DNA of 64,000 bases from Raillietiella orientalis (GCA_036172245.1 JAYWIR010000006.1:2852001-2916000); one strand, 5' to 3'. Numbered from the stretch's first letter, positions 19,380-52,067 are shown. The notes: generated by a model from the letters alone, not told the origin. Translations and numbers: made by a program.

Positions 19380-20389
19380 TGATTATCACCGGGTTATTTC
19401 GGGGCATTTATTGCATGAATCAGCAAAAATACATTTGTGTGGTTTATCACCCGGTAAAGCCGGGCCGTTTATTATAAAAAATAATAAACATGCATTTGTA
19501 GGGCCGATGGCCCTGCATTGTCCGAAAATGCTTGGAACCTGCCGGGTAAACAGCATGCAGGCCGGCGAGGTTCTCCTCGGCAGCAGAGGGGGAAGGGTAA
19601 ACAAAAATAAAAATAAATAATAGAAAAAAACTCTGGGGCCACGATCGCTGGGGAAGGGATCGCTGTCCGCTGGAAGGCATCCTCTGCACCCTTTCCAGGA
19701 TGCCGGCAAGTTCCATCCGAGTACGCCCGGGTGGAGGCCATCTTGCTGCCGTCCTCAGGAAGCACATGGCATCCCCATCGTGCCACTCTCCTCTCGCGTA
19801 ACTCCAGGACGCCACAATTCCACCTAGGCAGCAACTTTGATCTTAGAAAAAAGGCCGAGAAGCGAAGCAAAGAGCTGCTGGGGATGAGGCAGGCGAAAGA
19901 GCATCGCGCATGAAGAGGAGCTTCATCACGTCCTTGCTATCGTCTGTCGGTGTGCCGAGGGCTGTTGCGTAACGCAACCACAGGGGCCGGAGGGCAACAC
20001 AGTCAAGCTGAGATCTTCATTCCCCACACTTGCAACAGTTGAGGTCCACAGCCCCCCGGGTCCAGTGAGAGCGGAGGGGTTTGCACGGTAGACCCTAGTG
20101 CAACAGCAGAAGTGCCTACTCCAGCCACTTCAGGTTGTTCTTCAGCGCTGAGGGCCACCTGAGGTCTTCGTGTGGGATTTCCAGCAGCTTATTCCAGCGC
20201 AACAGTCTTTTCGGTGACGTGCTTGGGGTCGCAGTGTCCGTGAGCTAGCCCGTGGTCCAACCACCTAGTTTCCTTTCTTCTGACTGATTTTGCAACTGAC
20301 CTCCGATTTGACCGTCTGGTTACTGCCCAGGTGCTCCCCGAACGAGGGCAGTGCCGCAGCTAGGGAGGTTCTTTGCGCCTACGCACACG
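19380..20389 (-). mobile_element. Tx1/L1-like LINE 3' portion (second subfamily), with two stacked termini at 19380-19412 and 19440-19473
   Basis: Homologous to 58395-59850. Carries AVDLNCCKCGE..LDCVALRPLWLRYATALG and two AATAAA-hairpin-TGATAA termini. Confidence 0.8.
19835..19865 (-). pseudogene. U2: U2 snRNA 5' fragment (about nt 2-32) inserted in a LINE
   Basis: Reverse complement is TCGCTTCTCGGCCTTTTTTCTAAGATCAAAG, versus U2 ATCGCTTCTCGGCCTTTTGGCTAAGATCAAAGTGTAG. Flanked by direct repeat agcaa (19830-19834, 19866-19870). The paralogous LINE site at ~58765 lacks the insert. Confidence 0.85.
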
Positions 20390-21960
20390 TGGTTTATCAA
20401 TCGGATATGCCGGGGCATTTATTTAGGAAAAATAAAAATACAATGAATTTTCTCGTGGTGAACCCAAGGCTCACCACGTAACAACAGCTTGCTGGTTGCC
20501 GATACAAAGACCGGCTAGGTCCATCCAACGCGCAGAGGTGGGAATAAAGTCAACAAAAAGAAACGAAAAAAATCAAACGCGGGGCGGGGATGAATGTCTG
20601 GGGGTGGGGAGGGAGGGGAAGGAAGGGATCACTATGTGCGCGGATGGATCCTCCAGATCCTGCTCAGGATCCTAGCAAGCCGAGTCCTACTTGCGCCCAG
20701 GTGGGCCACCTGGAGAAGTTTGGCACGAAGATGCGAGTCCAGTGGATGGCATCCCTGCCATTCTGCCCTATTCCGGCGTTCCACTCTGCCACGATTCCAC
20801 GAATGCGGCAGAGAACTGCAAAGGACGCCGCTGGCGGCAGACCGGCACGCGCCAAGAGGCGTTCAAAAATGTTCCTGGGGCCGCCCGTCGGGATGCCTAG
20901 GATCGTCGCGAGGTGATCCCAAAGAGGTCGGAGGGAAGCACAGTCCAACAACAGGTGCGGGATGGTCTCCTTCTTCCCGCACCTGTCGCACTGAATGTCC
21001 ACGCTTCCCGTGTCCAGTGGTGAAGGCGCGCTTTGCACGGGATTCCCCCATGCAACACCAGGAACGCCGAATCCTGCCACTTGAGGGGGAGTGCGCCACT
21101 GTTCCAGCACGCTGGGAGCCACTTCACCACCTCCGGAGGGATGCCGAGCAGATCTCCCCAGAGTAGAAGTCCGTGGGGCGGGACTCTCGGGGTCGCATCG
21201 TCCGTCACTCCCCGTGTTGTCCACACCCCATGGTTTCTTCTTTGCTTTCATGCAGCAAGTTACTTTCCACCTTGCCGTGATCACGGTGCCTCTTGCGTCC
21301 CTAAGGGAAGGCGGGCAGCACTGGATCAAGTGAGGTAGACGAGGCCCATCGCATCTTCTGTGGGTTTCGGACGATCTTCTCCAACGACATGCGAGTGTTG
21401 ACGTCTCGCTGCAGGCAGGCATACCCCGCCTCGCTCGAGCCGTGAATCTTTCTTCAGGAGAAGACCGACTCTTGAAGTCAGGCAGTGCAGTTCGAGGAGA
21501 GACAGGAGATCTAAGTGTTCTCATGCACCGGGACAACCATCTGGAGGAGTTATACCCGCAGCGCGTCAGCAACCTCTCGGGAGCGACGAGGAGGGATTAC
21601 TCCTCGCAACCGGTTGCGCTCTTCGCGAGGAGCCATGATGGTGGGTACCAGGGTGTGGTCCACAATGTTGCCACGAGGGCGAGTCTTCTGGATTGGAGCT
21701 GGCGCTCCATCCTCATGGAGTAAGGAGACTCAGTCCGCCGTCCTGACGAGGAGCACACAAGTCACCTTGCCTGCCTGGGAGGCTTTGTAGTGCGAGGTTC
21801 AGCCCAAAGGGAACTGTCTACCTCTCTGTTGAACCCCTTTATGAACGCTCTCCCATTCGAACCGTCACTGACCAGGAGCACGGGATCTTGAATCTGAAGA
21901 CGAGGACACGGCATCAGTGCATCATGAAGATTCGTGGATGCAGATGGAATTTCACAGCTT
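20390..21960 (-). mobile_element. Tx1/L1-like LINE, ORF2 C-terminal third and 3' terminus, inserted into the preceding LINE copy
   Basis: ORF 20664-21572 contains VDIQCDRCGKKETIPHLLLDC. Terminus aataaatgccccggcatatccgattgataaacca at 20390-20423. Confidence 0.85.
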
Positions 21961-23194
21961 CTTTTCAGTAGCCACTGGGCGAACCGAGACGCGTTCTACG
22001 TTTCTGACCGGTCCCTGGATTTGACGAAACACAAATAATAGCGGAAAGGTTGGCGGGTCAGGGTTCCTTGCTCGTCGGCATGCTGCGTGCCGTATCCCTT
22101 AAGCTCCACCCGGGGGAAGAGAGAGAGGCCGGAAACTTCTCGGAGATGTTCACATGAAGTGGCTATAGGCGGCCTGAGGTCAGCGGAATCCATCTGCCTC
22201 TTTTGCAACAAAAGTGTTCTTCACCTCCGGTGCGAACGACTCTGGATTCCAAGCCCTGAAGCGATCTACATTTTCAGTACAGTACACACTTGTACGGCAT
22301 GGATCACTGACAGTCCTCAAAGCAGCGTTGGCATCCCTCTTTATTAGAAGCATCGCATTAAAAAAAAAAAAAAATCCAAACGAAGAAGCAGTATTACGTA
22401 AACGCGCCCATCTTGGGCAAGCATGTGTCCAATAGCAATACAAATCACGTGACTAGTAATTAACAAAAGATGAAACAAAATCCATTGTAACAATTTATTT
22501 CACTATAGATTGATTTATAACGATCTTTAACTCACTGAGTACCTCACTCGATGAACACAATAAAAAATGGAATGACAGCTATGAATCACCTTGATAAATC
22601 ACACTTTAATTTAGCAAAGGCAAGCATTGCTGATCAGCATTTGCCACACCCAAATAAGAGCCATAAGAACTAAGCCAACGATCCATCGGAAAACAACAAG
22701 GGTCAACAACACGAAACTACTCTAAAATTGCCATTCACCGTCGTGATATCAGTCACCGGGAAATGAGAAAGGTAGTGAGCCCTGAACAAACAAAAAGCTC
22801 TAAGCAAACCTCTGAAGAGACAATGTATCAACTTGTGTAGGGATAATTTTACCAGCTGCTTGGGGAGGCAGAACGGGAAGAAGCGTGCTGCCATCACAAA
22901 CAGCAAAACAGGATAGACTCACATGGCACATTGGCAGCGGTGGCCATTCACCAGAGATATCTGTGAGGCACACCAAAGCAGAAATGTATGCAACAATCCC
23001 CTCCCTGATAACTGAGTGGGAGTCCAGGTGCCATGCCCCTGATGAACAGGGACTACAAATAGCCTCAGTGTGCAAACAGACCCTCGTGGCCATCTGCAGG
23101 CAACAAAAAGAAGAAAAATGCCATCAGCTATGTGCTACAAGATAAATGTTGCAGGGTGCATTCATGTCTTCCATCATCAGTTGGCAGCACCCTG

Positions 23195-23895
23195 CTATCC
23201 TCCACCCACAACACGTCCTTCACTATCAGCATTTTTTCTACGTAATCAGCAAAAATATCACGGAAGCAACCCCAAGCCTTTTCTGGAGCATTTTACTGCT
23301 CGTTTGATTGTTGGTTTCACCCCTACCCCCCAAATACGCATAAGGAACACCACGGATGTTCTGATCCAGATCAAAATAAAAATGTTTGTTCTTGACCCTC
23401 GCAGTACGACCCCTCAGAAGCACAAGACGAGAATCACCATCATCAGTCCCAAATTTTTCAAAAAGTTCAGTTAAGGAATCTCGAAATTCCAGCGTTCTCC
23501 GTGCTCGGGTGGCAATTGGGGAGCGGGCACCATGGTGGTCTGTGATCTGGACACTCGCAGAAAGAGTCCTCTAGCATTCTCTTTTAGATACAGGCAATAG
23601 CACCGACTGTCTTTTGCCATGAACTCTGACTTCAGTTTGCCACTTTCTGGACTGGCCCTAGAGACAATCCATCTCGACCACCAAAATCTGTTAGACGGAA
23701 CACAGCTGCAATAGATAATGCCCGGAAACTGTGTTTCTGCTATCGCCTGCACTGATCTCAGCAACCTTAACGACCTCTTCGATTCTGCTCCGCATCAATA
23801 GGAAATCGTTTTGATCGAATGTGGAGACTGAGAGTTCCAAGTTCCTGTTGGAACGATTCATCAAAATGACCATGATCAGAAACTGGAGAAGCCAT
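23195..23895 (-). pseudogene. PURA: Pur-alpha (PUR-repeat nucleic-acid-binding protein) pseudogene, intronless, several frameshifts
   Basis: Three PUR repeats in shifting frames: [124 protein letters not shown]. These match arthropod Pur-alpha as I recall it. Confidence 0.9.
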
Positions 23896-24279
23896 ACTCC
23901 TATAACAGTACACGGAATGGCACAGTTAAAGCACCACTTTGGATAGAATGGTATTCACCATTGTATTTGTTTCGGCATGAAACATCGAACTTCTCACATC
24001 AGATGGAATGCATTTCCAAGATCTCGTTTAACGGAAATTGGTAATTCAATAAACCTTACAACTGACTGCAAAACTGTACATGGGTACGAATGTATTTTGT
24101 ATGCATGATTGAGTTTATGTTAACGATGACCATTTGCCTCGTTTGTTTCCATTTTCAACGCGATTCGTTCCCCGAATACGTCATGAAAAACACCCTTAAA
24201 GAGTCTTGCCATCTTCGTTTACTACTGCTTGCTGTAGTTCCGGATTTGCGCCGCCAGAGGATGCCGCTGTAGCAAGGAG

Positions 24280-25240
24280 AACCTTGCTGTACCACCTTGC
24301 CATCAAGGTTTTTCCCTTGGAGAACACACTAGAAAGTTCGGAACGCGATTGCGGTGAAGCGAACTCGAAAGCGTAGTGACGTTCCACGTTGCCGGAGTCA
24401 ACCAGCGGCACTCTGCGACAGGAAAGCTGCACAGTGGACGGAGGTCGACCCAGCGCGGAGACGAAAGCAACACCCGGCGCAAAAGAGCAAGATGGAAGAT
24501 CGTGCCCGAGAGTAAGGAGCTCCGGGCGAGGGGAGTCGTTCGCGGTCATTCCGCTTTTTGTGAACGCACCACAGGCCACGAGCGTATGGTGCCAGGGACG
24601 ACCCAGGGCCATCATCGAGTTTTCTTTTTTTTGAAAGTTGGGGGTCGGAGGGGGTTTGCTAAGCGATCACGGAACTCGTTAACGCTGCCCACGCCAGCCG
24701 AGTGCGTGTCACTCTTCAAATTAAGGGGTAGCCCCATAGAGACTACCCCATGAATTCAGGAAGGGTTCCGGAGGAAGGGATCCGTTCCTCTCACGCTTGG
24801 TAGGGAAACCCCGAAGGGAACCCTCGCCCTGGTCGTCTTCGAAGGGAACCTCCTCTTCTTCGTTCTCTCAGGAGGGACCCCAAGGTTTGTAGGGGCAGCT
24901 CCTCGTTTCTTCTCCGTGGAGAACCAGGAAAGCATCGCTCCTGGGATTTCTTTCTCAGAAGAACCCTCCGAAAAAGATCCTCCTCTCTTTCCTCCTCCTC
25001 TGAAGAGAACCTGGAAGGGACGCTTCCGAATTCCTCCGAAGGGTCGCTCCTCGAAGGGAGCAGAGCACTTCTTGGACACTCTGTGGAGATGTCATCAATC
25101 CACCAGCTCCATGGTACGAAATGGAGCGAGTTCCTCCCTCCCTCCCTCTTCCTCCCCGAAAGGGAAGGACGGGTCCGTTTACACAACCAAAGGGCAACTC
25201 CTTGATTCCTGGCTCCCCACCGGGGCGTGTGGACGACTCG
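24280..25240 (-). mobile_element. Dispersed repeat module continuing into ORF1-like sequence
   Basis: Same module as 2190-2950, followed by NEFRDRLANPSDPQLSKKRKLDDG and HYAFEFASPQSRSEL. Confidence 0.6.
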
Positions 25241-25249
25241 TGACCAGTG

Positions 25250-26050
25250 GGGACTCCTACGAGCCGCGACTATGGCATCACATGGACTGGCTGCAAGGGA
25301 GGGCGGCCCACGAGTCTTTTGAACTGTGGCTGGACCGAGGACCCCCAGCGGATATGAGTCAAGCCCCGAACTCTGGACATACCACCGCTGATGAATCGAT
25401 AGAATCAGCTTGGGAGCGGTTCGGGCACCCAACCTTGAACCCGCAAGCTATCGGAACCATCCTATGGAGGTCGACACCGCCTCCAGACATCCGGGACCGC
25501 CTCCTGACGTCTTGCCATGAGGGAATCCCGTGTGGCACGGGGCACCAGCATAGGAAAAGCAACCCGAAAGACTCAGAAGCCCCGCGTGCGGGAGCGCGGC
25601 AGGTCAGCTACACGCGTTCACCTGCAGGAATCTCTCCCTGGACAGGAGAGTGATCAAGAGGACGATGGGATTGCTATCCGAAGCCGGAGCCGAGCTCCTT
25701 GGCGGACTCTGCCTAGGAGAATGCGTCGTTCCCTTGAGCGATCCCACGTTGAGGTCCACACTGGCCTTCCTCGCGGGAACCCTTTTCATCAGGAGAACAT
25801 CACTTTGCAGGGGTACGGAGGTCAGTGCACGCGAGATGCCGACAGACCTCCTCAGAAAGATAGAGGCTCAACAGGCTGTGGCAGGGCGCTGGCCTGGACC
25901 ACCTCCTACACTTTGATCTTAGCCAAAAGGCCGAAAAGCGATCCTCCTACTCTCTGAAGAGGAATCAGGGAGCCGGGAGACTACAGCTCGGTGCAGGAGG
26001 ATGCAAAAGGCACAGTGGCAGGTATGCAGCGAGCGGTCCACCTTACAGTC
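25250..26050 (+). mobile_element. Diverged Tx1/L1-like ORF2 C-terminal remnant
   Basis: ILWRSTPPPDIRDRLLTSCHEGIPCG parallels WNSGALPLKWQDSAFLVLHGGIPCK. A related piece lies at 26387-26530 (VWTSDLPLDTQDDLLMFYHGGIPSG). Confidence 0.55.
25906..25942 (-). pseudogene. U2: U2 snRNA 5' fragment (nt 1-37)
   Basis: Reverse complement is ATCGCTTTTCGGCCTTTTGGCTAAGATCAAAGTGTAG (36/37 to the recalled invertebrate-type U2). Flanked by direct repeat cctcctac (25902-25909, 25943-25950). Confidence 0.95.
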
Positions 26051-31105: not shown

Positions 31106-31109
31106 AAAG

Positions 31110-32817: not shown

Positions 32818-33511
32818 ATGCCTACATGGGGACAGATTCAAGCACAATTGAAAAATCCAACTAACCCAGTTGTCTTTATGGATATAAGTGTTGGGACAAC
32901 AGTAAGCCCTTGTCATTCTTTTTGTCTTACCCAAATGTGCTTCAAATTTTAGGAGATTGGCCGAATGATATTTGAACTTTTTGCAGATGTAGTGCCACGA
33001 ACATGTGAAAATTTCCGGCAGTTTTGTACAGGAGAATACAAAAAAGATGGTGTTCCAATTGGATACAAGGGTTCTATCTTTCATAGAGTCATCAAAGACT
33101 TTATGATTCAAGGAGGTGATTTTGTAAATGTAAGTAATTTAATCCACACCCTGGACACCTTACTTGTAAACTTTACTTCAGGGAGATGGGACAGGAGTTG
33201 CAAGTATCTTTGGTGGCATGTTTGTAGATGAAAACTTCATTTTGAAACATGAAGGACCAGGTCTCTTGTCTATGGTAAGTATATTGATGTGGTATTTTCT
33301 AATTTTCTTGTAGGCAAACAGTGGAAAAGATACAAATGGTTGCCAGTTCTTCATAACCTGTGCAAAATGCGATTTTCTGGATAAAAAACATGTTGTATTT
33401 GGTCGTGTTATTGATGGATTGTTAGTAATGCGCAAAATAGAAAATGTACCCACTGGACCCAATAACAAGCCAAAAATCCCTGTAATAATATCCCAATGTG
33501 GGGAAATGTAA
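32818..33511 (+). CDS. PPIH: Peptidyl-prolyl isomerase H (U4/U6 snRNP cyclophilin H), 183 aa; exons 32818-32901, 32953-33129, 33182-33274, 33314-33511
   Basis: [105 protein letters not shown] introns of 51, 52 and 39 nt keep the frame. Confidence 0.96.
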
Positions 33512-33524
33512 TCTTTTGCGACTT

Positions 33525-36453: not shown

Positions 36454-39400
36454 CAACTAGTACTACAATTACGGAATACAATGGTTGATTACTTCACACG
36501 GTAAAATAAGAAAAAAGAGATTTTCCTCTACACCAAAACACATATAGACACAGCCATTAAAAGGAACTTTGAGTATTAAGCTTCCATTCCATTATCAATG
36601 ATATTTAGAAAACAAAAATACGTATTCAAAATATACTTGAAATACCTGTCAAAATTTTTTGTAACATCCAGTTGCTATTTTCAGGTTATGAAGTTACATC
36701 ACTAACACTACCACATGAAAACTTCATAACAGTCATAGTAACTCCAGAAGTACCAAGTGGAATCAAAATTCGAAAATATGCACATAAAATCAACGTATGC
36801 AAAAATAATATGAAGTAGAGCTTTTAGTCTCAAGCGCATTGCACTTAGATTATGAGATAAAATGATATCAATACCTTATATTTTTTATACTCGTGAACAT
36901 TCATATTTTAAAAAATTTTTTTCTTTATTGCTGCTTCTAAAAAGAAACATTCACTTATAATCGAAGTGTGGTGTTTTCGGTGATTTTGTACTTGAGTCTT
37001 TCATTATTTAGTTTATTCTTGGAATTTCTATTAGAAAATTGTTTCTCAGACAAACTGTTCCACCATATTTATCGTCTTATGTCACTAGAGTTTATTCGAA
37101 TTTTTCATGATTATCTTTTGTCATTTCAAATCATTATCCCTGATATAGACTTCACTTGTGGCTCATCAGCAAAATGCTGTTAAATTAAAATAGATTGCTC
37201 TACATTCCCACAAATTTGTGACAGTCGTTAGATATCGACGAGTGTACACTCAAATCAAATGATAAGATCAATAAAAAAACAATTCTCGTGAAGTTCAAAG
37301 ATTGCAATATTTCTCCCTTTATAATAAAACATACTCTACAGTTCTCAAAAATTAGATTTCTTTTATTTAGTGTCAATGATTCACACCCATGATTGAAAAT
37401 ACCTCGATTGTTGAGAATGATTCATCAAATGTCTGAAAAGTATTTTCATTTTATGTTCACAGCAATCGTGGATGTGAATCTTGTATTGGAGCTGGAGAAA
37501 CTCAGTGCATTTCATAAAAAACTAAAATGGAGTTTAAAGTACACTGATTCATCGATATGTGAATTGGGATTTGAAACATAACTCGTCCGATATTTGAGAA
37601 TCGCGGCCGCTCGACCCGCATAATTAAAATAGTATCCACACATTGGGAACAATTCACAAACAAGTTCTAGTTCTTCATTGTGAACGCTCATGTGCTCTTA
37701 ATTTAGATTTCAAAACCCCTTCAGTCATAATCGTTTAACATCTTTGGAACTAGAACAGATAATTACACAATGGCAAAATTTTCATAAGCGGACTTGCCTT
37801 ACTTTGTTGCCTTGTTAGAACCATTCATATTCCATCACTTGTCGATAAAGACATCAAAGCATCAAAGCAGACATTCAAAAGCCTTTGATGGTCACTACGA
37901 TTTTTATTCAGGTGTAATTCTCCGTTTTACTTTTCTATGGATGTGTAAACTGCTCCTTAATATCCATTTATAAGGTGACATAAATACACTCTTATTTAAT
38001 AGACTTGTCCATAGGTTTGAGTACTTATCTATTGCTAATAAGACTATTCCTTATCAGTAGAATTATTTCTCCATTCGAACTTGGCTTTGGTTACAATTCG
38101 TCCTGAGGTGAAGCATTCAGCCTATTGTACTGATATTGTTGAATTGAGGATAATAGACTCATTTACATGTTATCATGTTAGTACAGGAATGTCGCGAAGT
38201 GATTTGATGAAACTTAGTTTGGATTTTGACTTCCTTTATAAATCCTTTTGGAAATTTGTGCTTAATGTGAATCTGATGTTTTCAAAGTTTTCGTTGATCT
38301 AAAATGAATTTACAGATATCTTGAAGGTGATCAAATCTTCATATGTTTATTTCCCCTTGATCCAGAGTAGTTAATCTCAAAAAGTTCTTGAGAACCATAA
38401 GGCAAGATTCACCAGAGGATCAGATATCTTGATATTGTAACAAGATCAAAATAGCCTATGTGTACTATTTCGAAATTCTCGTTAAACATAAAATGTCTTA
38501 TAACATCAGCATTTTTATGAAATTAGTAAAACAGAGAAGGAGTTTATTTATTCTAGTACAGTAACTGATACAATTATACATTTGCTAACATTCTTTTCCA
38601 TCCCTGATATTATTTTTGACACAAATTAGGATTTCGATCATGTTGTGGTTTTATTTCAATGTGTGCGACGACATTTCTAACTTATTTAACTTCTTGTTTC
38701 CTTAATAATCCTGATCGTATCATAACTGTGGCTATTTCACAATTATGGTTACTGCAGAAAATGAACAAATGGTTCTCTTTGTACTGACAATCAGGCACAG
38801 TTATAATTATGTTGAAAATTTTCGAGTCCAGACCACTATTGTGATCAAGAATGCTCTTTTGGTTTTGAGATGTGGTTCTTTGTTCAACCATAATAAATCG
38901 CTAGTGTCACTCGTGGAAGAATGCTCCATGCTTGTGACGTTCCCGGGAGTATTCTTATCAGCAATTTGAGAATTCGCTAATTCATGAAAGGTTAATGAGA
39001 CTAGCAAGGGTGACTGCATAAATGATCCGGAGCTTATGTCTCAGATTGAACATCGGGTAGTACGAAGACTTTGAAACTGAGCATGGAAGCATTCAAAAAT
39101 TTGTACAAACGGAAATCCTAATATCAGAAACAGCATTTGCAAACACTGGAGTGAACAAAAGCTGAATCAGTAACCTGTAATCTGAATGATTTTCGTGCCT
39201 TTCTAGCGTCCCTTATACCCAAATCGTCACGACCAAGTCGTAGAGAGAGTGCACGAAACCTTCGTGCGTCCTCCCTAAAACACCGCAGCCGACGCTTGCT
39301 TTGAAATTCAAAAAATTTCTGCTTCACTTTGTGAAATTCCTGGATAGCAAACTGCTCCCGCACCGAGTCCCTAACCGTGTTTCTACACTAATGTTCCCAT

Positions 39401-39596
39401 GCAAGCTCTAAATTTCAAACCGTGACTGGCGATCTGCCTGTGTTCAAGGTAGCCAGCCGTGTTGCTCGTCAAGCGATAGCCCATTTGGGAAAGTGGGCTC
39501 GTGTTAGCAACGTGTGAATTTGAATTCAACCACACAATATGTCTCACTCCGAGGGAAAATGCAAGCATGGGAAGAAAAGATGAAAGCAAATATGCG

Positions 39597-42351
39597 ATGA
39601 TAAGTAAAAAGCATAAGAAGCATAAATCGGATCGAAGGCAAAAGCATGATTATTGTGAGTAAATTTGGGAATGTGAACGTTGGCAAAGTTAGTGGTCGGT
39701 GTAATGTGGGAATGTGTATGTACTTGGTGTTGCATAATCAAAAGTCAACAGTTTAGCGGTTTCATGTAGCTTGTAAATTGCACAGAGTATCTGCCGTGAT
39801 GTTAGTATTGGAATTGTCGTATAAAACAGCGTAGAATATGTTTGTGTTTGTAATGAAATTCCCTTCTATATGTAATCAATTCTAAAGATCCCTACGAGTA
39901 CGCACCTGATGAAGCTTATGAAACAAAACCCGAAAAATCAGGAGGCCTCAAGTTAATTTTAAAGGTGGGTGGAGGATCCTCGACACCCGAGTACAGTGAT
40001 TCACCTGGGACCACATATTCTATTCCTGGTTATTGTAATTATGCCGAAGAAAGCTTAAATAAAGTTCAAATGAGCGTGGAAAGATATTTTGACAGGCACA
40101 AAAAAAGTAAGAAAAAAAAGAAGAAGAAAGAGAAAGAAAGAGAAAGGCATGAGAAAAAACACAAACATCAGCATCGTGGAAAGGTACAATTACCATGCTT
40201 ATCTGGTGGATATATTAAAGCTTTCATCTTCTTGTCAATATACTGTATATAAGTGAAGTTTAGTTCACTAAACTTTGCTGCTTGTAACGTAATTTTTGTG
40301 GCTATTTTATTCTTTTTAAAGGAACATTATAAGCAAGAGATAACAGGAACTGCAGACTGTGAATCTATGGAGAAACCACTCAAAAGACTATCCAACATTC
40401 CATTGTCCGAGAGACCTCACCGAGAGCCTAGAACTTGTGTTCTCAAACAAAGGCAAGGTAGAAGACCTCTTCAGGTGAGCATCTGGATTAGAAGACGATG
40501 TTAATAGTAAACAGATGCTTCTGGAGTATTTGCTACATTGCTTTGAGAAAAAGGATCCCCATCAGTTTTTTGCATGGCCTGTGACGGACACTATTGCTCC
40601 TGGCTACTCAGCGCTTATCACATATCCAATGGACTTGAGCACCATGAGACATAAGATTGAGAAAGGAGAATATGATACATTGGATGAGTTCATGGTGGGT
40701 TAGATTCACCCAAGCTGGTGTTCTATCAACTCTGAAGGATGACTTTCGCCTGATGTGTCACAATGCCTTGGCCTACAACCAGCCTGATACAGTGTATCAT
40801 AAAGCAGCAAAGAAACTACTGCATACTGGTTCCAAACTTACTTCTTGGGAGAAGCTGCTTTCTCTGCGTTATAATTTGCCTTATATCAATGAGCTGACAC
40901 CTGAGGAGTTGGGCATTCCCGAAAGACACTTTGTGACAGAAGGAAACAGTGAGGAACCTGATCTTATGAGAAGAGAATGCAAGACGGGAAAAATCGGAGA
41001 TAGGTACTGATGTCATTTTCATGAAGCTGCTAGGTGTCTGTTAGCTGCTTTGAAGCTATTGCAGATGATGTGCCTCCAGAGGAGCTTTTGGCTCAAGCAC
41101 AGCAAGCAGCCTGCAATGCAGCTGTAAAGCTCAGTCTTAAGAAGCCTCATTCTAAGGTAACCCAGTGTTCTAAAAAAGCCTGTGATACTGTTTTCTGTAG
41201 TTTGGATTCTTGAGACAGAAAGAAGATGGTAGCACTACTCTGGCTGTTGTGAATCCTAGTCCTGGTGATGAGGAAAAGCCTGTCAACCTAGGGATGCTTA
41301 CTGGAAAATTGGCGCAGGGCACAGGAAGCATACAAAGATTTCAGGAAGACAGGAGGAATCTTGTTTATCCTGGTTTGTTTTTGAGTTTTGTATATTTTTA
41401 TTGCCAACTTTGTTCCAAAAGTAAAACCTTTGTATTATGGCCCCTTTGGTTCTTTTGCACCTTCCTATGATTCCACATTTGCTAATCTCACTAAGGATGA
41501 GTCAGAGCTAGTCTTGAGCACTTATGGAGATTCTTTAGGAGTCCAGTATACCCAGAGGTAGGCTTGGCATTTTCTAAACATTCCAAAGCTTTTTTAGTCT
41601 TCTGGATTTTGCTAAGAATTCCGAGTTTGCTATGCAAATTGTAGATGATCTGCTGGATACATTGACTGATAAAGAACATCGCAAGACAATTCAGACCTTG
41701 CAGCAGCAAGAAGCTCCTCCCAAGAAACCTGTCACTATTCCAAATGCACCCACATTGCAGATCCGCACTAATTCGGATGCTACTGGCTCAGATGCTGAAT
41801 CTTTGAAATCACTTCAGGAATTGGGCATTGACATTTCTTTTCTTGAGGAATTTGGTAAGGATAACTAAATGGAGCTGATGAAACTTTGTGATGTATTAGA
41901 GAGAGTCACGGGTGATCAGACACTGAACAAAGAGACTCAAGATCAGCTGCAACTACAACTGGCAGATACTGCTGCGCTATTGCAGAAGTTGCAACAACTT
42001 CAGACAGAGAGACTAAGTTGTTGCCCTCCATCCCACCTACAGCATTTAGCAGGTCCAAGCAAATTGGAGCTTCAGCTTGGTAAGAGCTCTTTGAATCTAT
42101 AGCTCTCATGTTCATTAGCTGAGAAAATAAGTCACCTCCTGCATGAACTTTGCAAGCAGTTCCCACCTAAGGCTATAGTATCTACATTGGGTCTCCGAAA
42201 AGCTATGGGTATCTCTGTGCCTCCTGTTCCTGTAGCCAATTCTAAGAGCAATACCAGTAACAATGCTGATTTGGAATCAGAACTGCAGAAAATTCTTGGA
42301 GAAGATGGCATGCGCACTAATTCAGAATTGCAGCAAATTTATAGCCATTAG
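39597..42351 (+). CDS. BRD7: Bromodomain protein BRD7/BRD9 family, about 680 aa; exons 39597-39654, 39888-40183, 40322-40474, 40515-40694, 40738-41003, 41045-41156, 41201-41372, 41422-41557, 41598-41854, 41900-42079, 42119-42351 (alternative in-frame ATG at 39567)
   Basis: MISKKHKKHKSDR, LKLILKVG, bromodomain (KKDPHQFFAWPVTDTIAPGYSALITYPMDLSTM..CHNALAYNQPDTVYHKAAKKLLH) and DUF3512-like YYGPFGSFAPSYDSTFANL. Ten GT-AG introns give a continuous frame. Confidence 0.94.
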
Positions 42352-45289
42352 TAACTGCAGTATTATAGTCAAGACATTGGAAATAAGTAATTTTGTTGGA
42401 AGGGCTTTCTGCATGAATTTATGGAGTATACCAATTCAAGGCAAATGTTGCATCCTCCCTCTTAGATTTAAAACAGTTCTTTTTATAAAGTACTGATATG
42501 TGATGAGAAATAAGTGCTATGATGTAAGACAGTATATTCTGTAGGAAAATGTAATGGATATTCAAGAACAGTTATAATCAAGGAACGTTAGAAATTGCGA
42601 TTAACTTTTATTTTTCTGATCTTTACTGTTATGAAAAAAAAAAAAAAAAAAAGAATTGATGTGGTTTCAGAAGATAAATAAATATATTGAAATGACGAAT
42701 GGCCTTTCGAATTTCCGGAAAGTTTTTGGAAATTTTTGATATTTTCAAAAAAAATACTTTTTCTAACCATTTTCTAATTCTAAAAATTAAGATTTCCAGA
42801 AAAAATTCAGTTTTTCAACCAGTAGTTTTTCTGGTAACATCTCCACGCCCTGATCATTACTGATTGTTCAAATATTTGCTTTTGTGGATGGGTTGAGCCA
42901 TAAAACTTGCAAGTATGCAATATTGGTTCGATTCTTTACTGTGTTGTTAGCCACATCGGACGCTCGTAAATTCTAATGGACTATTAGAACTTACGAATGT
43001 CTAGTTGCCATTCTTTCGAGTGGCAATCTTTCCCACCTGTGACTTCAACATTTACGGTCTCTCACACGAGTTTGTGCTCTCATATCGCAGACCACTTTTC
43101 CAAGTGCCCACCAACAGTTTTGTATTTAACCTATGACTGGTGTCGTGCAACAGATCGGCGAAGCAATGCAGTCACGAGCCACGTGTACTCTTAAGCACTT
43201 CTCTTGCACCTTATTCCACTCATCAGTTGATCCATAGCCTTGCTGAGGTCATATTCGACTAGACATCTATTGCTGTGGGGGTTTGTTGGATCACGCGTCC
43301 TCATATTTAGCCTCTTAAAAAGGAAAGGGAATTATGCTCTTTGTTAATGTAGTTGCTATGTCGAGATTACTGGTAAGGGTTGGCTGAAACATCGTAGTGA
43401 CGTCATTTTGAGTGCCTTCCCTATAAGTTGGAGTTTCCAACCATTAACTTTTGCTCACGATATTGCCTTGCAGACTCTTATGCACGATGAGATCGTTCTT
43501 CTTGTGTGGGGCACTTGTAGTCGTGCTGGCGCCTTCCCAGCCCTGGCAATTTCGAGATTCATTATGTTTCCAGAGTTGCATGCTGCATTTTTGTTTCCAG
43601 AGCTTTTCCATCTGAAAGATTAGCTTCCTCGGCATGAATTGTTTGTTTGTGTAAGCTCCTGATAGGAATTATCGATTGGATGAAATTAATGGCCTTCCCC
43701 ATGTTGACTTTAGTCGTGCACATACAGCAGTATCTTTGCTGCGATTCACTTTAAATGCATGGCTGGGGAAGCAGCTATCTTCTGGAATCCCTAAAGATCT
43801 CTTACCTCCTCTTGCTACAACATCTGCAGCAACCTCTACTTTCGGCGTCTCACACTCAGGTGCAGTGCATCCGTACATGCACCTCAAGCAGATGCATTCA
43901 GACAAAACATGACCGCAAGCGCTTCTGGCGCTCTAGCCAGTAACATCCTGCTTGGAATCAGAGACACTAATTTTATGCGTTTAACCTTGGTACCTTTGCC
44001 GTTGCTATATTGCAAAAGTTATTTCGATCTGGTGAAAATTAGAGCATCGTTTGAGTAGGATTTTGTAGAATCTCCCTTCTGTTTCCCAATCATTGCTTTT
44101 TCTCAAGAAAAAAACTCAAAACTACCTCACGCAATCCCTGTTCTCTTCAAATCGGTCGGAGGAAATTGCGGCTGAATACGTGGCATAAGACACACGATAA
44201 CGTCATCAAATGAAAAAAAAGCAAAAAAAATTTTGTGTGTAGCCCACTTCCTCCTGCCCTCTCTGGCAGTGGTCTCACTGCACATTTTGAGGAGGAAGAC
44301 TGGCAAGGCTCGTGCAAGACGGTTGAATTGTCAGTTGACCTATCTCTTCCGGTACTTTTTCGAGAAATTTGGGCTCGGCTATTCAGGTAATTCTAGTTCC
44401 GGGTTCTCTGACAGACAGCAGACTGAAAAGGACTGGCACTTAAGCATGGATTCGAGTAACCGGTAGCGAGGTGGCAAAGGGGGCAACCAGAACTACTTTA
44501 GAGAATATCAGAAAATCCTAAAATCCTAGAAAACTTCCAATTTGTGCAAGTCTTTCCTCGTTTCAGCAATGAGCTTCATTCTTCAAGGACAAAGAACCGG
44601 TGAGATTGCTCTTCTTCTGGGCACCACAGCAACCAGAAGAATCAAAGCGAGGCGATGATTTTCGCTATTGTAGTGGAAAAGTAGACTGTTCTCTTTATGC
44701 ACGATTTTCAGCATCCTTTGCTGTATGTGAGCCTGTGCCGGAAAAGCTGTGCCTTTCAGCTCCTCGCCGCTCCATCCTCAAAACGATCTGAGCGAGATGA
44801 ATAACACAAAGACAGATGCCACAAACAGTCGTTGTTTCAAAACAGCACATATTCACTTTTTGACAGAATCAGTAAGATAGATCCACTTGGAACGCTGTCT
44901 CAACTTCCATGCATTCTGTGGTACCATCTCACATGAACCGCTTCATCCCGTCAATGGGACCAGAGGGCCGTGATATTTCGTCATTGTTTCATCATTACCA
45001 ATCAAAAGAAGAAGGAGAAAAACGACGCTCAGGAAGATCGCCTCCAGGTTTGATGAACAGAACATGCAAGTGCACGTCCGACCTGCAGAAAACGTGCTCT
45101 AAAATACTGAGATCGAGAAGACCAGTTTCGCCAGATGTCCATGCAAGCATAATAAGCCCGTAGACGTGGTTCTGGTGGCAGAAGTGCATCCCATCATATT
45201 GGTGCGTACCTCCTGTACCGTTGCACCACGGACTGCTGTTCACTTCATATGAACAGTTGGGATAAGGAGGCGCTCTCTCGGCGGCTTAC

Positions 45290-45830
45290 GAAACTCTTTA
45301 ACACTGTTCCAGGCCACCAGGAGGTGGATGCTAACTCTTCAAGTTAGGAGGTACCCCGGGAAGGGGCAACCCTGTGAATCCGATGAGGGCTCCAAATGAT
45401 GGAACCCGTTCCTTTTACTCTTGGGAGGAAACCACGGAGGGCTATTCTTTCTTATTCTCTCTGGAGGGATCTTCCGGAGGGGTTCACTCCATTATTTTTT
45501 CTCCGAAGGGAACCCGGAAAGGATGCGCTCTTGGAATTTCCTCTCCTGAGGGAACCAGTGAGGGAATAGCTCTCTGTCACTCTCTTTACAGAAAAGTAAC
45601 AAAAAGCAGACGTTAAAGGGAGGAGCGCACTTCACACTCTGAAGAGGTATAAGTCCACTAGCTCCATGGTACGGCTGCATTTGCACAACCGGAAGAGAAC
45701 CTTGAAGGGTTCCTTGATTCCTGGCAGGACCCCGGAATATTTTCTTTTAAATCCCAGCCATTCAACAGGAGCATCTGGTTTCCGGCTTCCACCAGTTCCG
45801 CACTTAAAGTGCCTGGGCGTTCCGTTGTGG
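45290..45830 (-). mobile_element. Copy of the dispersed repeat module
   Basis: Reverse complement has tgcggaactggtggaagccggaaacc, ccaggaatcaaggaa, ttccggttgtgcaaat and cttgaagagttagcatccacctcctggtggc. Confidence 0.6.
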
Positions 45831-46430
45831 GACTTCTGCTCCACAAAAGCTCCAGCCGTCTTCAGAAAGCACTGCAGCGCTCGGCCCGTTCCAAAGAAAC
45901 GAGTTTCATCTGCCGGAACGGACCGTGGTGTGAAACACGTTCATGATCCCTCCCCTCCGCCCCCTGCTTTTTGTTTGCCCCCACTATGCAGAACTAGAAA
46001 GCGGACGAACGACCTTCTCTGGATCGCCCTCTGGGGCAAAGGGAGGTCCCGAGTCCTCCTAAAGGACTTGTGTGCTTCGCGCCGGGATGGCGGCCTAGTT
46101 CTCCTGACGCTGGAGCGAATGAAGCTGCAGCTCCAGTTTCAAACACTGGCTCTCATGGAAAAATTCTGGAGCACCATCTGGTGCCAACCTGCATGTCTTC
46201 TCGTCCAGCAAGCCACCGATAGCGTGGGACTCTAGTCTTTCCTTGCACGCCTTCCACGCAGCCTCATCCAGTGCGGACTGCGCCTTCGGCAGGTGGTCAC
46301 GCTGGTCAGGAAAAACGGATGGATCTCGTGCCACCCCTCGCGAACGGTAGTTCCTGGTCGCAGGAAACCGTTCGCACGTGAGCGAGGATCCAGGAGCCAA
46401 GAACGGAACAGGTGTGACGTTTCCTGTACG
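45830..46430 (+). mobile_element. Tx1/L1-like ORF2 fragment just downstream of the RT core
   Basis: LLWIALWGKGRSRVLLKDLCASRRDGGLVL matches the L1/Tx1 FLW.GK...V....L......GGLGL motif. Homologous to 27130-27400 and 21570-21790. Confidence 0.7.
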
Positions 46431-49107
46431 CGCACAACAACAACTGCACGCTCCCGGAGATCCTGGAAGATCCCATGAAGATTGCGTGGGCAAGCAGAAC
46501 CTCCCTCGTCGCCGCGCTGCCCTTCCTTAGAGAACACTTGGGCAGCAGCCTTGCGGTTATCGGACTGTGTTACTGTGAAAATCTTTGGAAGGAGAAGAGG
46601 ACTGGACGAGTGGACGAAAGCTTAGCATCAGTTGGCTTCATTTATAAAAGTTTTTCATGTTGAAACATACATATGCAAGATGATATCCATTTGCATCTAT
46701 CATTTCATCTATTTGCATTTGCATGTATGTCGTGACTGCGAAACCAAAACTGTGGATATGATTCATATCAAAGTATTACTTTATATGCTATTGTTTGCCT
46801 TTGTGTATTCGCACATACCATGGTCTTAGTTTCAAAAACTTTTTTATTTTACTTTTGAGTTCCCTTATGCTGTAGCTCTCATAATTTGTTTACTCGTATT
46901 TTTAAGAACTACTATTCATTTTTAGAAGTTATTGGAGGTAGTGTGAAAGTACCATGTACCAAGAAAGAGGAAATTCTATAATATGCGGTTGGAATTTCTC
47001 ACGACACAAGCAGATGCATAAAAAGAGCTTCAAATTTAAACCAATGAAATTGTGAATTAGTTGCATACGCTTCATGTTATTTAGAGGCTTACTGTTCCTT
47101 TAAGGCATCTCGAAAGCATCGTTTCCTGAAGCAAATTTATGATCTTGAGAAATCGCCATATTACACTTTGAAATGGATATTTCATGTACTTTAGCCGGCT
47201 TTCTATCTTTGGAATAAGATCCCTTCTTATGAATCATGAATCGGAGTGAAATTTTCCATTCCAACTGAAAAAGAAAATCAAAGATGAATCAGAGATGCAC
47301 AATCAGAAGAATTCATATAGACTTGAGCGTGTTTCTGCAAACTAAGTCTTTTTTTCTTGCTTTCTCTGTAATTTTCCATGGAGCCAAGAACTTTTTTCTT
47401 ACTTTCTAGAGAGCGCCATCGGAGAGGCTGCTGTCTTCTTTTCGAACTGATCACCTTCCTAGATCCTATATAATTAGATAAGTGCCTAATGATGCCAAAA
47501 AGCTAGGTATGAAAAAGGATCTGTTATGCAAGAGAACGTTCAGGAACCCTAGAAGACATGCTAATGAAATATCATGGGAGATCAGACGGATCAACACACT
47601 GAAATGAAATCTTATCCCAAATACGCAGAACAGAGACCACCGAGGAACAGATGAAAGTTTGCAAATGAGAAGACGAACAGAATTGAATCTCTAGGAGAAG
47701 CATCGGATGCGACTCGTCAGAAAGCCGGCAGTCCACATGGTAGTCTATGCCATAAGAGTTGGAGTGTTGCAATGGTATGCAAGGTACTGGTAAAAGGAGC
47801 TAAAAACTCAGAACATTTACTAACAGAAGATTCCATTTGACATACTGTCTCAGATGCTATCACCGCTATTACGACAACTATCAACAGCAGTTAGGTGATA
47901 ATATGGAAACTGTAAAGGAGACGCATCACAGTGCAGCTCAGTACTAGTGTTCTCATCAATAGTAAGCATTCTCATCATCTCCATGACGAAATGTAATCTC
48001 TATCTGGAAACGGTCCATACTGCTTCTGGTTACAAGGTCAAATTTGCTTATTTGCTATACCTAAATGAATAAAAAGGGGTGAGAGTTCATTGTTTGTTTC
48101 TATTAAAGATCATTCAGAAGAAGAATATACGGCTAAAGTGGAGCAACAATCTAACATGATACTTTTCCAAACCAGTCCTACAAGTAAATGGATTAAATAC
48201 TTTTCCAATGTGACAATTATAGCTTACTGTATATTCCTAGAAGACCCATACGTCCGAGAAACGAGGTAGTACAGTGCATCTGCATCAGGAACAGAGGTTA
48301 TCCCAATCTTGTTCAAAAAACTAGAGAATCATCAAAAACATATGCTTTTGTTTGCAGTCCACAGGTGACTTCGACAGAATGATATCCGTACTTAAAGCGA
48401 ATGGAGACTCCATAGTGTGCGTGTTGCTTTTTTTATACTGGGAGAGTGGTTGAAACCAGGAAATGCTTCACATGGCAGAGAGAGAAAAAAAAGAAAAACT
48501 CCTAGGACACAAAACGAAGTAACTATGTCGTCTCCAGTCCTACAAGCAGAGGGTGAATTTATTTAAGAGACCTGTATAGAAAAACAATGTTTGCACGAAG
48601 GGCAACAGTTTTTTTTTTTTTTTTTATGTCCTAGTTCTTGAATGCACTCAACGTCACTTTTTGGTAGGATCCGTATTTTATGTCACTGGGGTCTGGTCAC
48701 TGGAGGATCTTCGGAGCTGCTATCGCCTGGTCATTATCCTTATCAAAACCACGTCGCGTTTCCATGCTTACGGGTTTGCAGTGCGATCTGGTCTTGGTCT
48801 TATTTCCATTTGAGGACAGGTATTCAAATGGTGCCATTTACGTACAGGCTGATTCTGGTAGCACTGCTTCGTTTCGATTGCATGCTTGAACACGAAAGTG
48901 CAACTGATTGTTATTTGGCAAGAAAGAAAAATCAGTTGCCGTTACCTTCGTTTGCCGTTCCCGTTTCAGCTACCCCGACGACCGCTGCAACCCCCCGGAT
49001 GTGGCGTCTGTCTTTGTTCTGAGTGCACGCAGCCAGACGCTTGCTGGTGATCCCAGCAGCCAACCCGTTCGGCGACTCCGTGCCTGCAGCCAGGCAAACT
49101 GTTGGTG

Positions 49108-50310
49108 ATGTCCGGTCAGCCCAACATTAAACAAGGTAATTATGTGCCAGAAATGGAAGGCTTGAATTTCGCGAGATTCTCGTCAATTACTTGTGATCGC
49201 TGAGGCTCTCGATGCAGTTTTCCCAAGGGATTGGTATGTTTACACCAGTACTGGTGCAGTGTGAAGTGCGTTGCACGGGAAGAAGTCGTGACCTGTGTTT
49301 CCTGACGTTACCTAAATGCAACCCGTGATGGCAGTTTGCTGAAGTCGTGTGTGTTGGACGACGCGTGTATGTCGAGTCGTGCTGCCCGGGAATCACCAGA
49401 GTTGAATGCGACACGCGTGTTGCAAGGGTGGCAGTGTGTGCTATGTGTTCGTGCATCGTTCCTCGGTAATCTTGCAAGGAACTTTTCCGTCTTGTTGCAG
49501 ATGATTGCTCCTGTAGTTTGTTTTTTGCCATTCCGGAACAGAACCAGATTGCGATGGTGCATAAACTGAAGTGGGAGTTATCCTGAATTTGATCTATATT
49601 TGTAGAACCCCGTTTTCCTGCGAGGCATTGAGTGAATGGCAAGTTTTCGAAATACAGCCAACAGCATTCATTTGATCATTTGCTCTCTCTATACTCGAGC
49701 AATCTGATGGTCATAATCGTTATGCAGCATTTCATTATATTTCATGATGACAGTACTGTTGAATTCACTATGGCAATTTCTGCCTGATTATTATATGGCA
49801 CGGTATTTGTTGGTGGCATAATTTCATTGAGAAAAGATTTGATAGAAAGGCTTTATTAGGAAATCAGGGCGAAATGGATTTCTATAACTGTTAATGAAAA
49901 TTAAGCATCCTGGATAGCACCCAAAGTACTTTCAAAATTTTTCATTCCAAATATAGAACTCCAAAATAGGAAAATTCTGGAAGAGTTGCAGCTTCAAAAG
50001 AAGCAGCTTTTATCAAAGTCTGGGTCTGTTAGCTCTGTTAAGCTTACACCTTCTTTGCCAGCAAATGTGCCATTCAATGTAAGTGTTCTTCAGTTGATTT
50101 TCAGCATTATATAAATATTGTGTACATGATCTTCATTTGTAGCCTATTAGCATGCCCTATGATGGTCAGCATATGCTCATTTCATCTCAACAAAGATCAG
50201 CACTTCAGCATGCCCAGATGACTTCGCCAGGTTACTTTATTCCTCAGGATTCTGCATTTGGAAATTTAATTTTACCAGTAATTCCTCGACTTGAGAAATC
50301 TGAAATGTAA
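49108..50310 (+). CDS. INIP: SOSS complex subunit C (INTS3/NABP-interacting protein), 105 aa; exons 49108-49135, 49957-50078, 50143-50310; missed by the ORF track
   Basis: MSGQPNIKQ|ELQNRKILEELQLQKKQLL...|...QQRSALQHAQMTSPGYFIPQDSAFGNLILPVIPRLEKSEM*. The C-terminal GYFI.QDSAFGNLILPV.PR is the SOSS-C signature. Introns are 821 and 64 nt; exon 1 is the least certain. Confidence 0.9.
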
Positions 50311-50356
50311 GTTTTGGGTAGGTTTGGGGTAATAATGGTATCATGTGTGCCAGGCA

Positions 50357-51007
50357 ATGAAGCGTAAGCAGCTGGAAAGCAAGTTGGAGCCGCTACAATC
50401 TTTCACTCATCCAAAGGTTCATTTAGAACAGTATGCAACATCACCTCATATTGCCAGTTGTATGTTGTTCTCTATTGAATATAGTTTTGGAGAAGTGAAA
50501 AACCAGCTGGTAGCTGATCTAGGCTGTGGTTGTGGTGTATTAACTGCAGGATGTTCTTTACTAGAAGTTGGACATTGTGTAGGAATTGACATTGATTGCA
50601 GTGCTTTGCAAGTGGCTGCTGCAAATATGGCAATGTTGGATGTGACATGTGTGGATTTTTTGACTGCAGATGTTATTGAAGAAAACATAGGTCTATCTTT
50701 GAAGCAGCAGTTTGACTGTGTGATTATGAATCCTCCATTTGGTACTAAGCATTTTCCTGGTGCTGACTTGGCCTTTTTGAGACAAGCGTTTCTGTTATCC
50801 ACAGGATCTGTTTATTCATTGCACAAAACGTCTACCAGATCACATGTGATAAGAAAGGCAGAGCAGTGGGGAGCTGAAGTGGAAGTACTGGCTGAACTGC
50901 GCTATGATCTCCCTCGTAGTTACAAGTTTCACCAGAAGAGTTCAGTTGATATTGAAGTGGATTTCTATCGATTTGATGTACAAAATAAATTGAAGAAACT
51001 TCAGTGA
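50357..51007 (+). CDS. METTL5: 18S rRNA m6A methyltransferase METTL5, 216 aa, intronless CDS
   Basis: PKVHLEQYATSPHIA, SAM-binding ADLGCGCG, catalytic NPPF, VYSLHKTSTR, AELRYDLP.SYKFH.K.SVDIEVDF.RF. Confidence 0.96.
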   Translation: MKRKQLESKLEPLQSFTHPKVHLEQYATSPHIASCMLFSIEYSFGEVKNQLVADLGCGCGVLTAGCSLLEVGHCVGIDIDCSALQVAAANMAMLDVTCVDFLTADVIEENIGLSLKQQFDCVIMNPPFGTKHFPGADLAFLRQAFLLSTGSVYSLHKTSTRSHVIRKAEQWGAEVEVLAELRYDLPRSYKFHQKSSVDIEVDFYRFDVQNKLKKLQ

Positions 51008-52033
51008 AGTACAAGATCACAGAAGTTCGCGTCATTCATTTTTTTAAGGTCACATATAAAACAAATTATGAATATTTCTTGGTTCACCAGAACGAAAAGT
51101 TTGTTAAGTGTATGTGGTGTACCTAGAGCATTAATGTTGCTGTGAACTAAACCAATGAAAAAAGAAAGTGGATTGTGTCTGTGAACTACTAACTACTTTC
51201 ATTGTAAATTAAATAAATAAATTGAAAAGATGAGCTTCTTTAAAGAGTGTGCTAGTGAAGTGGTTTTTAATGAATGGAAACCTAATGGAATTGTAGAAAC
51301 TGCATACATCCCAGTGTCAGCATCGACTGGATTCTGGTTCACGAAATCCCTCGATTTCACCTTTTCAAAGGTAGCTTTCTCCTGTTCTTGCACACCTTTG
51401 CTGTTACAATCCCCATTAAGCTTCCCACGTTTGAAATGTGGCTGTGATTTGTTTCACAACATCAGATGATGGATTAGCAGATATCTCTTGCTGCTCTTGG
51501 TGCTGCATGATTTACTGCATGCTTCTGTGCAAAGCTTTTCTGTAAAGTTCTTTTTTGAGTTTGGATTCTCGAGTTTCTCACAGTGATCCGAAATTTCATG
51601 TTCCTCAGTACCAAGGATAAAAGGAATCAGATTTTGTTCTAGCAAACCAGTGGGATATGTGTGAATGGATATGCTTAACGAATCAGCAATGATGTCAGGT
51701 AACTGTGGGTTACATGTGGTTTTGGAGTGCTTTGCATAATCATGATGGTTGTAACTGTACGCCAGCATGTCCCATACCTTGTCATGTTAGAGCCAACAAC
51801 TTCACCTGTGCCTGGTGCAAAGGCATCATTTGTTTGTGTCCTTCAAGCAATACGTCGATGTTTGAGTTACAAGAGGAAGGAAAGGTTCTGTTGTACTTCA
51901 CTGAGCAATGGGATCCACTGCCCATTTGTAGCTTTAAGTATGTTTGTGTGCCCTGATGCAAAGTGCTCTCATTGGGCCCAGTTCATACTTGCATGGGTGT
52001 CCTCCTGGGAATTCTGGACTCTGTGAATGCTGT

Positions 52034-52067
52034 ATCGCTTCTCAACCTTTTGGCTAAGATCAAAGTG
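52034..52067 (+). pseudogene. U2: U2 snRNA 5' fragment (nt 1-34)
   Basis: ATCGCTTCTCAACCTTTTGGCTAAGATCAAAGTG, followed by a repeat of its end (gatcaaagt-gatcaaagt). No downstream U2 sequence or Sm site. Confidence 0.9.

Follow-up and report, generated by a model that had tools for sequence, protein, structure and literature searches.

Three short, tailless 5' pieces of U2 small nuclear RNA in a 64-kb window: probable 3'-truncated retropseudogenes

Three U2 5' pieces in 64 kb

The window analysed here is a whole stretch of 64 kb of Raillietiella orientalis DNA (GCA_036172245.1, JAYWIR010000006.1:2852001-2916000), and its subject is the small nuclear RNA (snRNA) U2, of which it holds three 5' pieces, at 19835-19865 (-), 25906-25942 (-) and 52034-52067 (+), called sites 1, 2 and 3. 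A target-site duplication (TSD) is present at two of them, 5 bp long at site 1 and 8 bp long at site 2. The features at the sites, and the two repeat copies that bear on site 1, are listed below with positions in the window; U2 nucleotides (nt) are numbered from the 5' end of the RNA, and "LINE" stands for long interspersed nuclear element.

19441..20393, minus strand: repeat copy A, old and non-coding, host of site 1; a hairpin described earlier as a "LINE terminus" lies at its end (19441-19464)
19830..19834, minus strand: site 1, 3' TSD copy TTGCT, of which the first T may just as well be U2 nt 33
19835..19865, minus strand: site 1, U2 nt 2-32, 31 nt, 2 mismatches, tailless; missing from copy B in the alignment
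19866..19870, minus strand: site 1, 5' TSD copy TTGCT; copy B has a single TTTCT here
25902..25909, minus strand: site 2, 3' TSD copy GTAGGAGG; its first 4 bases (25906-25909) equal U2 nt 34-37
25910..25942, minus strand: site 2, U2 nt 1-33, 1 mismatch, tailless; found by inspection, Rfam, blastn-short and the 32-mer scan
25943..25950, minus strand: site 2, 5' TSD copy GTAGGAGG, a perfect 8-bp repeat
52034..52067, plus strand: site 3, U2 nt 1-34, 2 mismatches, tailless; found by inspection, Rfam, blastn-short and the 32-mer scan
52068..52076, plus strand: ATCAAAGTA, nearly repeating the 9 bases at the end of the site 3 U2 piece
58399..59836, minus strand: repeat copy B, paralog of copy A (72-81% identical), with an empty site for insertion 1

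Allowing up to 2 mismatches, a 15-mer of the U2 piece matches the window three times against 0.16 matches expected, and none of 100 shuffles reached three. The 32-mer of U2 nt 2-33, with up to 3 mismatches, likewise gave three matches in the window and none at all in 100 shuffles. When 14 full-length U2 genes, taken from 14 of 121 listed metagenome loci, served as blastn-short queries, exactly three matches were significant, to nt 2-33 (expectation value, E, 3e-8), nt 1-37 (E 1e-13) and nt 1-34 (E 2e-9). Rfam in E-value mode called U2 at site 2 (E 0.004) and site 3 (E 0.62) and missed site 1; the true alignment in these calls covers only ~nt 1-37, and no Rfam family passes its gathering score in the window. 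Beyond the 5' part, blastn-short found nothing of U2 in the window better than E 0.1, and the window therefore holds U2 5' pieces only. An 11-base weak match to U2 at 57858-57868 was judged to be chance.

The pieces start at U2 nt 2, 1 and 1 (sites 1, 2 and 3), which is the 5' end of the mature RNA, and because their 5' ends coincide with that of the RNA, the copies are RNA-derived. They stop at nt 32, 33-37 and 34. Since the Rfam structure line puts stem-loop I at model nt 7-26 and leaves the next ~20 nt unpaired, all three ends fall 6-11 nt into an unpaired stretch. Mismatches are private to each copy (2, 1 and 2 at sites 1, 2 and 3), and a self-BLAST of the window found the flanks and downstream sequences of the three pieces to be unrelated; thus, the three copies are independent. 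An A-rich tail was sought at all three sites and found at none.

A sequence-only reading had reported these fragments before, and inspection and the 15-mer and 32-mer scans returned the same coordinates and strands for all three. Its further description, of starts at nt 1-2 and clustered stops at nt 32-37 (blastn-short, 32-mer scan), of different mutations and flanks, and of TSDs at two pieces (TTGCT and GTAGGAGG), holds as well, and its statement that no element 5' end follows the fragments agrees with the lack of a LINE body behind sites 1 and 2.

Insertion sites

At site 1 the paralog supplies the empty site. Copy B reads CAGCTCT-TTTCT-GCC where copy A has TTGCT, 31 nt of U2 and TTGCT again, a gain of precisely 36 bases made up of the U2 piece and the 5-bp duplication. 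Site 1 is a proven insertion.

Site 1 and copy A lie in a segment bracketed by an inverted repeat pair (15057-15762 / 20620-21324) that is younger than any other repeat pair in the window, with 93% identity across 708 bp. A long open reading frame (ORF) of this repeat, at 20667-21596, had no match in Pfam.

Copy B carries an insert of ~500 bp (59080-59604, -) that is missing from copy A. It ends in AATAAA and a 13-base poly(A), is flanked by a 12-14-bp TSD, (A)AGACCTCAGGTGG, and has the look of a retroposon with a poly(A) tail or of a processed retrocopy; its ORFs had no match in Pfam. Given this poly(A) and duplication, poly(A)-type retroposition therefore occurs in the host genome, with this insert as its one retrocopy in the window.

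At site 2 the match to U2 reaches nt 37 because the duplication opens with the 4 bases that U2 has at nt 34-37. As a control for the duplications, the 5' flank of one U2 piece was cross-paired with the 3' flank of another (6800 pairs): a direct repeat of at least 5 bp appeared in 2.6% of the pairs and one of at least 8 bp in 0 of 6800. The 4-base overlap of target and RNA at site 2 is a signature of internal priming, and fits it better than a recognised 3' signal.

At site 3 the near-repeat ATCAAAGTA directly behind the piece could be a polymerase restart, later slippage, or target sequence.

The source form of U2

At the place of AAG in the Rfam consensus, each of the three pieces has AAAG. 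The extra A is present in protostome U2 RNAs. The cow and dog U2 consensus in Table S10 of Noll et al. 2015 (PMC5322556), in contrast, lacks it, and the host is therefore not a mammal. A scan of metagenome contigs with a 20-mer that includes the extra A found at least 121 loci; among the 122 matches listed, U2 sequence extends beyond nt 60 in 84 and stops short of it in 32, and 6 leave the contig. We had considered whether the extra A might point to one special master copy and rejected this, since the 84 are longer U2 genes with AAAG; the extra A is a normal U2 variant in many organisms.

Among the listed matches with an end before nt 60, 22 of 32 break off at nt 33-38, and judging from these contigs the breakpoint zone is widespread among organisms with the AAAG form of U2. 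Some of the loci are interrupted U2 genes. In locus L116, 100 of 100 upstream bases equal those of the intact gene L065, and U2 breaks off after nt 34; over the pairs L116/L065, L001/L013 and L097/L012, U2 genes are interrupted after nt 34-53, with identical upstream sequence over 100/100, 73/73 and 100/100 bases. L016 and L093 have the same foreign sequence behind U2 nt 45-50, and L023 is a tandem array of U2 5' pieces. The interrupted loci and L023 are candidates for U2-targeting elements or U2-derived satellites. A common body of ~200 nt stands directly behind U2 nt ~13-33 in L028, L042 and L084, which look like a repeat family with a U2-derived head. The metagenome loci mark the region after stem-loop I as a general weak point of U2 genes and RNAs, and lend no support to a tailless route in the window.

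Over sites 1 and 3 and loci L014, L028, L054 and L082, a frequent change within the U2 piece is G-to-A at the stem-loop I CpG (nt 11). Site 3 has GG changed to AA at this CpG and site 1 has GG changed to TT at nt 19-20, the ordinary decay of dead copies.

Class assignment

To which class do the three copies belong? The term "tailless retropseudogenes" reportedly comes from Schmitz et al. in 2004, and Denison and Weiner are said to have described Group III (old Class IV) snRNA processed pseudogenes in 1982. In the portions of Noll et al. 2015 (PMC5322556) available to us, the class consists of copies that keep the whole 5' end of the RNA, break off on their 3' side at set single-stranded positions, have no tail and lie between TSDs, and the target is complementary to the final 2-18 nt of the copied RNA; U2 is among its high-copy sources. 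The available part of the supplement of that paper gives 666 U2 cases in human, 638 in mouse, 471 in dog and 246 in cow, without genomic duplicates. The first 18 human U2 coordinates span 33-44 nt and the first 22 of cow 31-44 nt, with one of 78 nt, so that 39 of these first 40 entries measure 31-44 nt (Noll et al. 2015, PMC5322556, same part). An excerpt of Doucet et al. 2015 (PMC4476161) has Group III snRNA pseudogenes arise where a single-stranded RNA segment pairs with nicked DNA.

In the window, the 5' end of the mature RNA, a 3' truncation in single-stranded RNA and the lack of an A tail are seen at three of three sites and a duplication at two of three; target and RNA overlap at the 3' junction by 4 bases at site 2 and by 1 base at site 1, and ambiguously at site 3. 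Because a complete 5' end, heavy 3' truncation, no tail, TSDs and target/RNA overlap define the class, the assignment to the tailless, or Group III, U2 retropseudogenes is well supported. Taken together with the way they would have been made, the three pieces are probably heavily 3'-truncated tailless U2 retropseudogenes (Group III / old Class IV) produced by LINE-type internal priming.

The tailless U2 class of mammals has the same size (31-44 nt) and the same single-stranded end zone, is likewise without tails, and shows duplications, as well as a target/RNA overlap that site 2 may share. The host differs, being non-mammalian here and mammalian in the U2 class of Noll et al. 2015; the parts of that paper at hand (PMC5322556) report the class from therian mammals and anole only, plus 8 maize cases, and tie it to relaxed L1. 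Among the titles listed in literature searches on tailless retropseudogenes and on truncated or derived U2, none reports the class in invertebrates, and two candidate papers only cite the mammalian work. The Group III class of Doucet et al. 2015 shares the heavy 3' truncation and the duplications, and is defined on human L1 activity.

Two other systems make use of the U2 5' part. SINEU families of crocodilians, short interspersed nuclear elements (SINEs) of which SINEU-3 retains the first 32 bp of U2 (Kojima 2015, PMC4494074, in the part available), likewise mobilise it, but with a body, a tail and shared master copies, whereas the window pieces are bodiless; a SINEU-like SINE with a U2 head was rejected here because the downstream sequences of the three pieces are unrelated. 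Utopia and Keno, LINEs that insert between U2 nt 38 and 39 according to an extract of Kojima and Jurka 2015 (PMC4640811), break the same conserved single-stranded region in which the window pieces end. Their insertions lie inside U2 genes, whereas the window pieces are solitary, element-free and in unrelated DNA.

Mechanism and alternatives

How might such copies arise? A reverse transcriptase (RT), most likely LINE-derived, would take U2 snRNA as its template where the chromosome has been nicked. Exposed by the nick, the DNA 3' end would pair with a few bases of the single-stranded stretch 3' of stem-loop I, the branch-point-recognition region, so that reverse transcription would start inside U2 and not at the RNA 3' end, and the enzyme would run through the remaining 31-37 nt to the 5' cap. 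The TSD would follow from a second nick at a distance of 5-8 bp. At site 2, a primer strand ending in the complement of GTAG could have paired with U2 nt 34-37. We propose that the copies are inert fossils; the kind of enzyme, priming within the RNA and not on one cut beforehand, and insertion in the germ line are our inferences.

For the mammalian copies, Noll et al. 2015 (PMC5322556) explain the shared end point by internal priming in the single-stranded stretch past stem-loop I, in the text available of that paper; the same text states that pre-cut U2 and 5S RNAs and A-tailed truncated copies were sought and neither found, and that nicks already present in the DNA can serve a LINE RT as well. 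Compared with a pre-cut template, internal priming is the more likely route, if unproven. On present evidence the shared end point reflects a known property of U2, the exposed strand past stem-loop I, and a new capture signal is not required.

Several observations weigh against tailless retroposition as the origin of the window pieces: (i) a Pfam scan of all 423 stop-to-stop ORFs of at least 70 amino acids in the window found an RT or endonuclease domain in none of them; (ii) the sample is three events in a single 64-kb window; (iii) no duplication directly adjoins the site 3 piece, and the 9-base near-repeat behind it is unexplained; (iv) the junction at site 1 is weak, with its 1-base overlap; (v) the nick sites CT/TTGCT (site 1) and GA/GTAGG (site 2) do not fit TT/WAAAAWW, which is a mark of the mammalian driver and stands outside the structural definition of the class; (vi) the duplications measure 5 and 8 bp, against the 8-35 bp screened in Noll et al. 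2015 (PMC5322556), as far as the accessible text gives it; and (vii) among the metagenome matches listed, a direct repeat of at least 5 bp flanks only 3 of 31 testable truncated pieces, and many short U2 pieces elsewhere arise otherwise, through element insertions into U2 genes, composite repeats and satellites. The mismatch in motif and duplication length may point to an enzyme other than relaxed L1, or to breaks that no endonuclease made.

Site 3 could have a different origin from the other two. Chimeras of snRNAs and LINEs formed by template switching were reportedly described by Buzdin et al. in 2002 and by Garcia-Perez et al. in 2007; in these, too, the 5' part of an snRNA is copied to its 5' end by a LINE RT. 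In such chimeras (Group IV), the snRNA is followed at once on its 3' side by a LINE, Alu or mRNA that is 5'-truncated, and there is a poly(A), whereas at sites 1 and 2 nothing stands between the piece and the duplication, and for these two a Group IV origin was rejected on that ground. A search from 60 nt upstream to 300 nt downstream of site 3 found a 9-base direct repeat, TCTGTGAAT, at 52020-52028 and 52123-52131, 5 bases upstream and 55 bases downstream of the piece. Together with the missing adjoining duplication, this repeat would suit a chimera of U2 nt 1-34 and ~55 nt of another retro-copied RNA, bounded by TCTGTGAAT. We regard this as possible but rather unlikely: the upstream copy stands 5 bases off the U2 start, by a rough estimate chance alone would give flanks of this size a common 9-mer a few per cent of the time, and the 55-nt stretch has no tail and no second copy in the window.

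In an endonuclease-independent capture, by comparison, U2 cDNA or an RNA template would fill random breaks during end joining (templated sequence insertion). Targets that are not A-rich and have no common motif, short duplications (5 and 8 bp) and the stutter-like near-repeat at the duplication-free site 3 are all compatible with such filling. Clean duplications at two of three sites, however, imply staggered nicks and not blunt breaks, and the 5' ends are complete in three of three, and we consider this origin improbable. It overlaps with LINE-driven priming, as a LINE RT can use pre-existing nicks, and three events cannot separate the two.

The sequence-only reading suggested that a resident LINE, which would be of the stringent type, may take U2 stem-loop I with GA-x-AAA for its own 3' hairpin, which would make the U2 5' end a ~35-nt mini-SINE. 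Both sequences do form short hairpins (U2 piece, -9.1 kcal/mol; repeat terminus, -10.5 kcal/mol), and the local density of three pieces in 64 kb would agree with a dedicated route; against shuffles, however, neither fold stands out (z -1.8 for the U2 piece and -1.5 for the terminus). Even at a tolerance of 3 mismatches, the quoted LINE terminus turns up at a single place in the window, where the homology between copies A and B fades, copy B being without the hairpin. The scanned window ORFs have neither an RT nor an endonuclease domain, behind the pieces there is neither a microsatellite nor a 3' tail of the LINE type, and the 4-base overlap at site 2 fits internal priming better. In mammals, moreover, the same truncation zone is found with an L1 that has no such hairpin and primes on A-rich sequence, and because the mammalian U2 pieces of 31-44 nt are ascribed to L1, a special hairpin is not needed for a common end point. 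Mimicry of a 3' signal is not supported and very unlikely. Retroposition of a ~35-nt U2 unit by LINE-type machinery, the other half of the capture idea, matches the literature, and the mini-SINE label comes close to the published "tailless SINEs" (a term in the available text of Noll et al. 2015, PMC5322556).

Least credible of all, the pieces would be by-products of U2-gene-targeting LINEs (Keno or Utopia), with the upstream U2 5' part co-transcribed or released and then dispersed: the insertion site at nt 38/39 is close to the window end points and some metagenome U2 genes are interrupted at nt 33-38 (L116 versus L065, for example), but the window pieces lie outside U2 genes with no other U2 part and no RT domain present, no element stands behind them, duplications bound sites 1 and 2 right at the U2 piece, and the end points at nt 32-37 precede nt 38, so that the link to these elements drawn earlier is not needed.

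Density and meaning

Three copies in 64 kb amount to ~47 per Mb, against 0.09-0.34 per Mb (93-338 per Gb) in the part available of the data on four mammals, a comparison in which the mammalian figures count perfect cases only and the window was chosen for its unusual look. By our own arithmetic, the human figure leads one to expect ~0.015 copies per 64 kb, and three would be very unlikely. Fragments of U1, U4, U5, U6, 5S, 7SK and tRNA were absent from the window at Rfam E<=10, in a scan of limited sensitivity that caught two of the three U2 pieces, and ARAGORN found no tRNA genes in the window. In mammals, U2 pieces occur alongside pieces of 5S, 7SK and tRNA.

On present evidence the three pieces are a routine genomic fossil of a kind already described. 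What is possibly new is the non-mammalian host, the short duplications that are not A-rich, and the presence of three copies in 64 kb. One may speculate, with rather little confidence, that the first ~35 nt of U2 have been amplified to tens of thousands of copies per Gb by an RT other than a mammalian L1, with nicked DNA pairing to the branch-point-recognition strand. If true, tailless retroposition would not be tied to therian or anole L1, and the exposed single strand of U2 would be a general landing pad for target-primed reverse transcription. A dense population with non-A-rich targets in an invertebrate-like genome, if confirmed, would point to a second enzyme family that primes internally on cellular RNAs, and if dense, the U2 insertions would serve as clean presence/absence phylogenetic markers in the lineage.

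Other features of the window

The Pfam-matched ORFs belong to host genes only: cyclophilin, EXOSC10, a BRD7/9-like gene, METTL5 and a PurA-like ORF pair. Four of these are placed as follows.

32953-33228, plus strand: cyclophilin
33538-36456, minus strand: EXOSC10, with an exon of 393 amino acids; at most 59% identical to named proteins (molluscs, insects)
39857-41865, plus strand: BRD7/9-like, with bromodomain and DUF3512
50336-51004, plus strand: METTL5, apparently intron-less; ~55% identical to fishes and a starfish

They fall in an AT-rich (35-45% GC), gene-dense block at 32900-51100, between GC-rich (50-62%), repeat-rich flanks. The host is an animal-like eukaryote without a close annotated relative in the collection searched, where the nearest named proteins are 55-59% identical.

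The PurA-like pair lies at 23241-23794 (-), where two adjoining ORFs, read in different frames, have PurA family matches of E 4e-10 and 2e-8. It is a gene split by a short intron or else a pseudogene with a frameshift; one of its parts, used as query in a homology search, gave no match. A GC-rich hairpin with a perfect 19-bp stem lies at 60665-60708 (-); Rfam scored it as mir-9242 at 34.5 bits (gathering score 62, E 0.03), and it is probably just an inverted repeat in GC-rich DNA.

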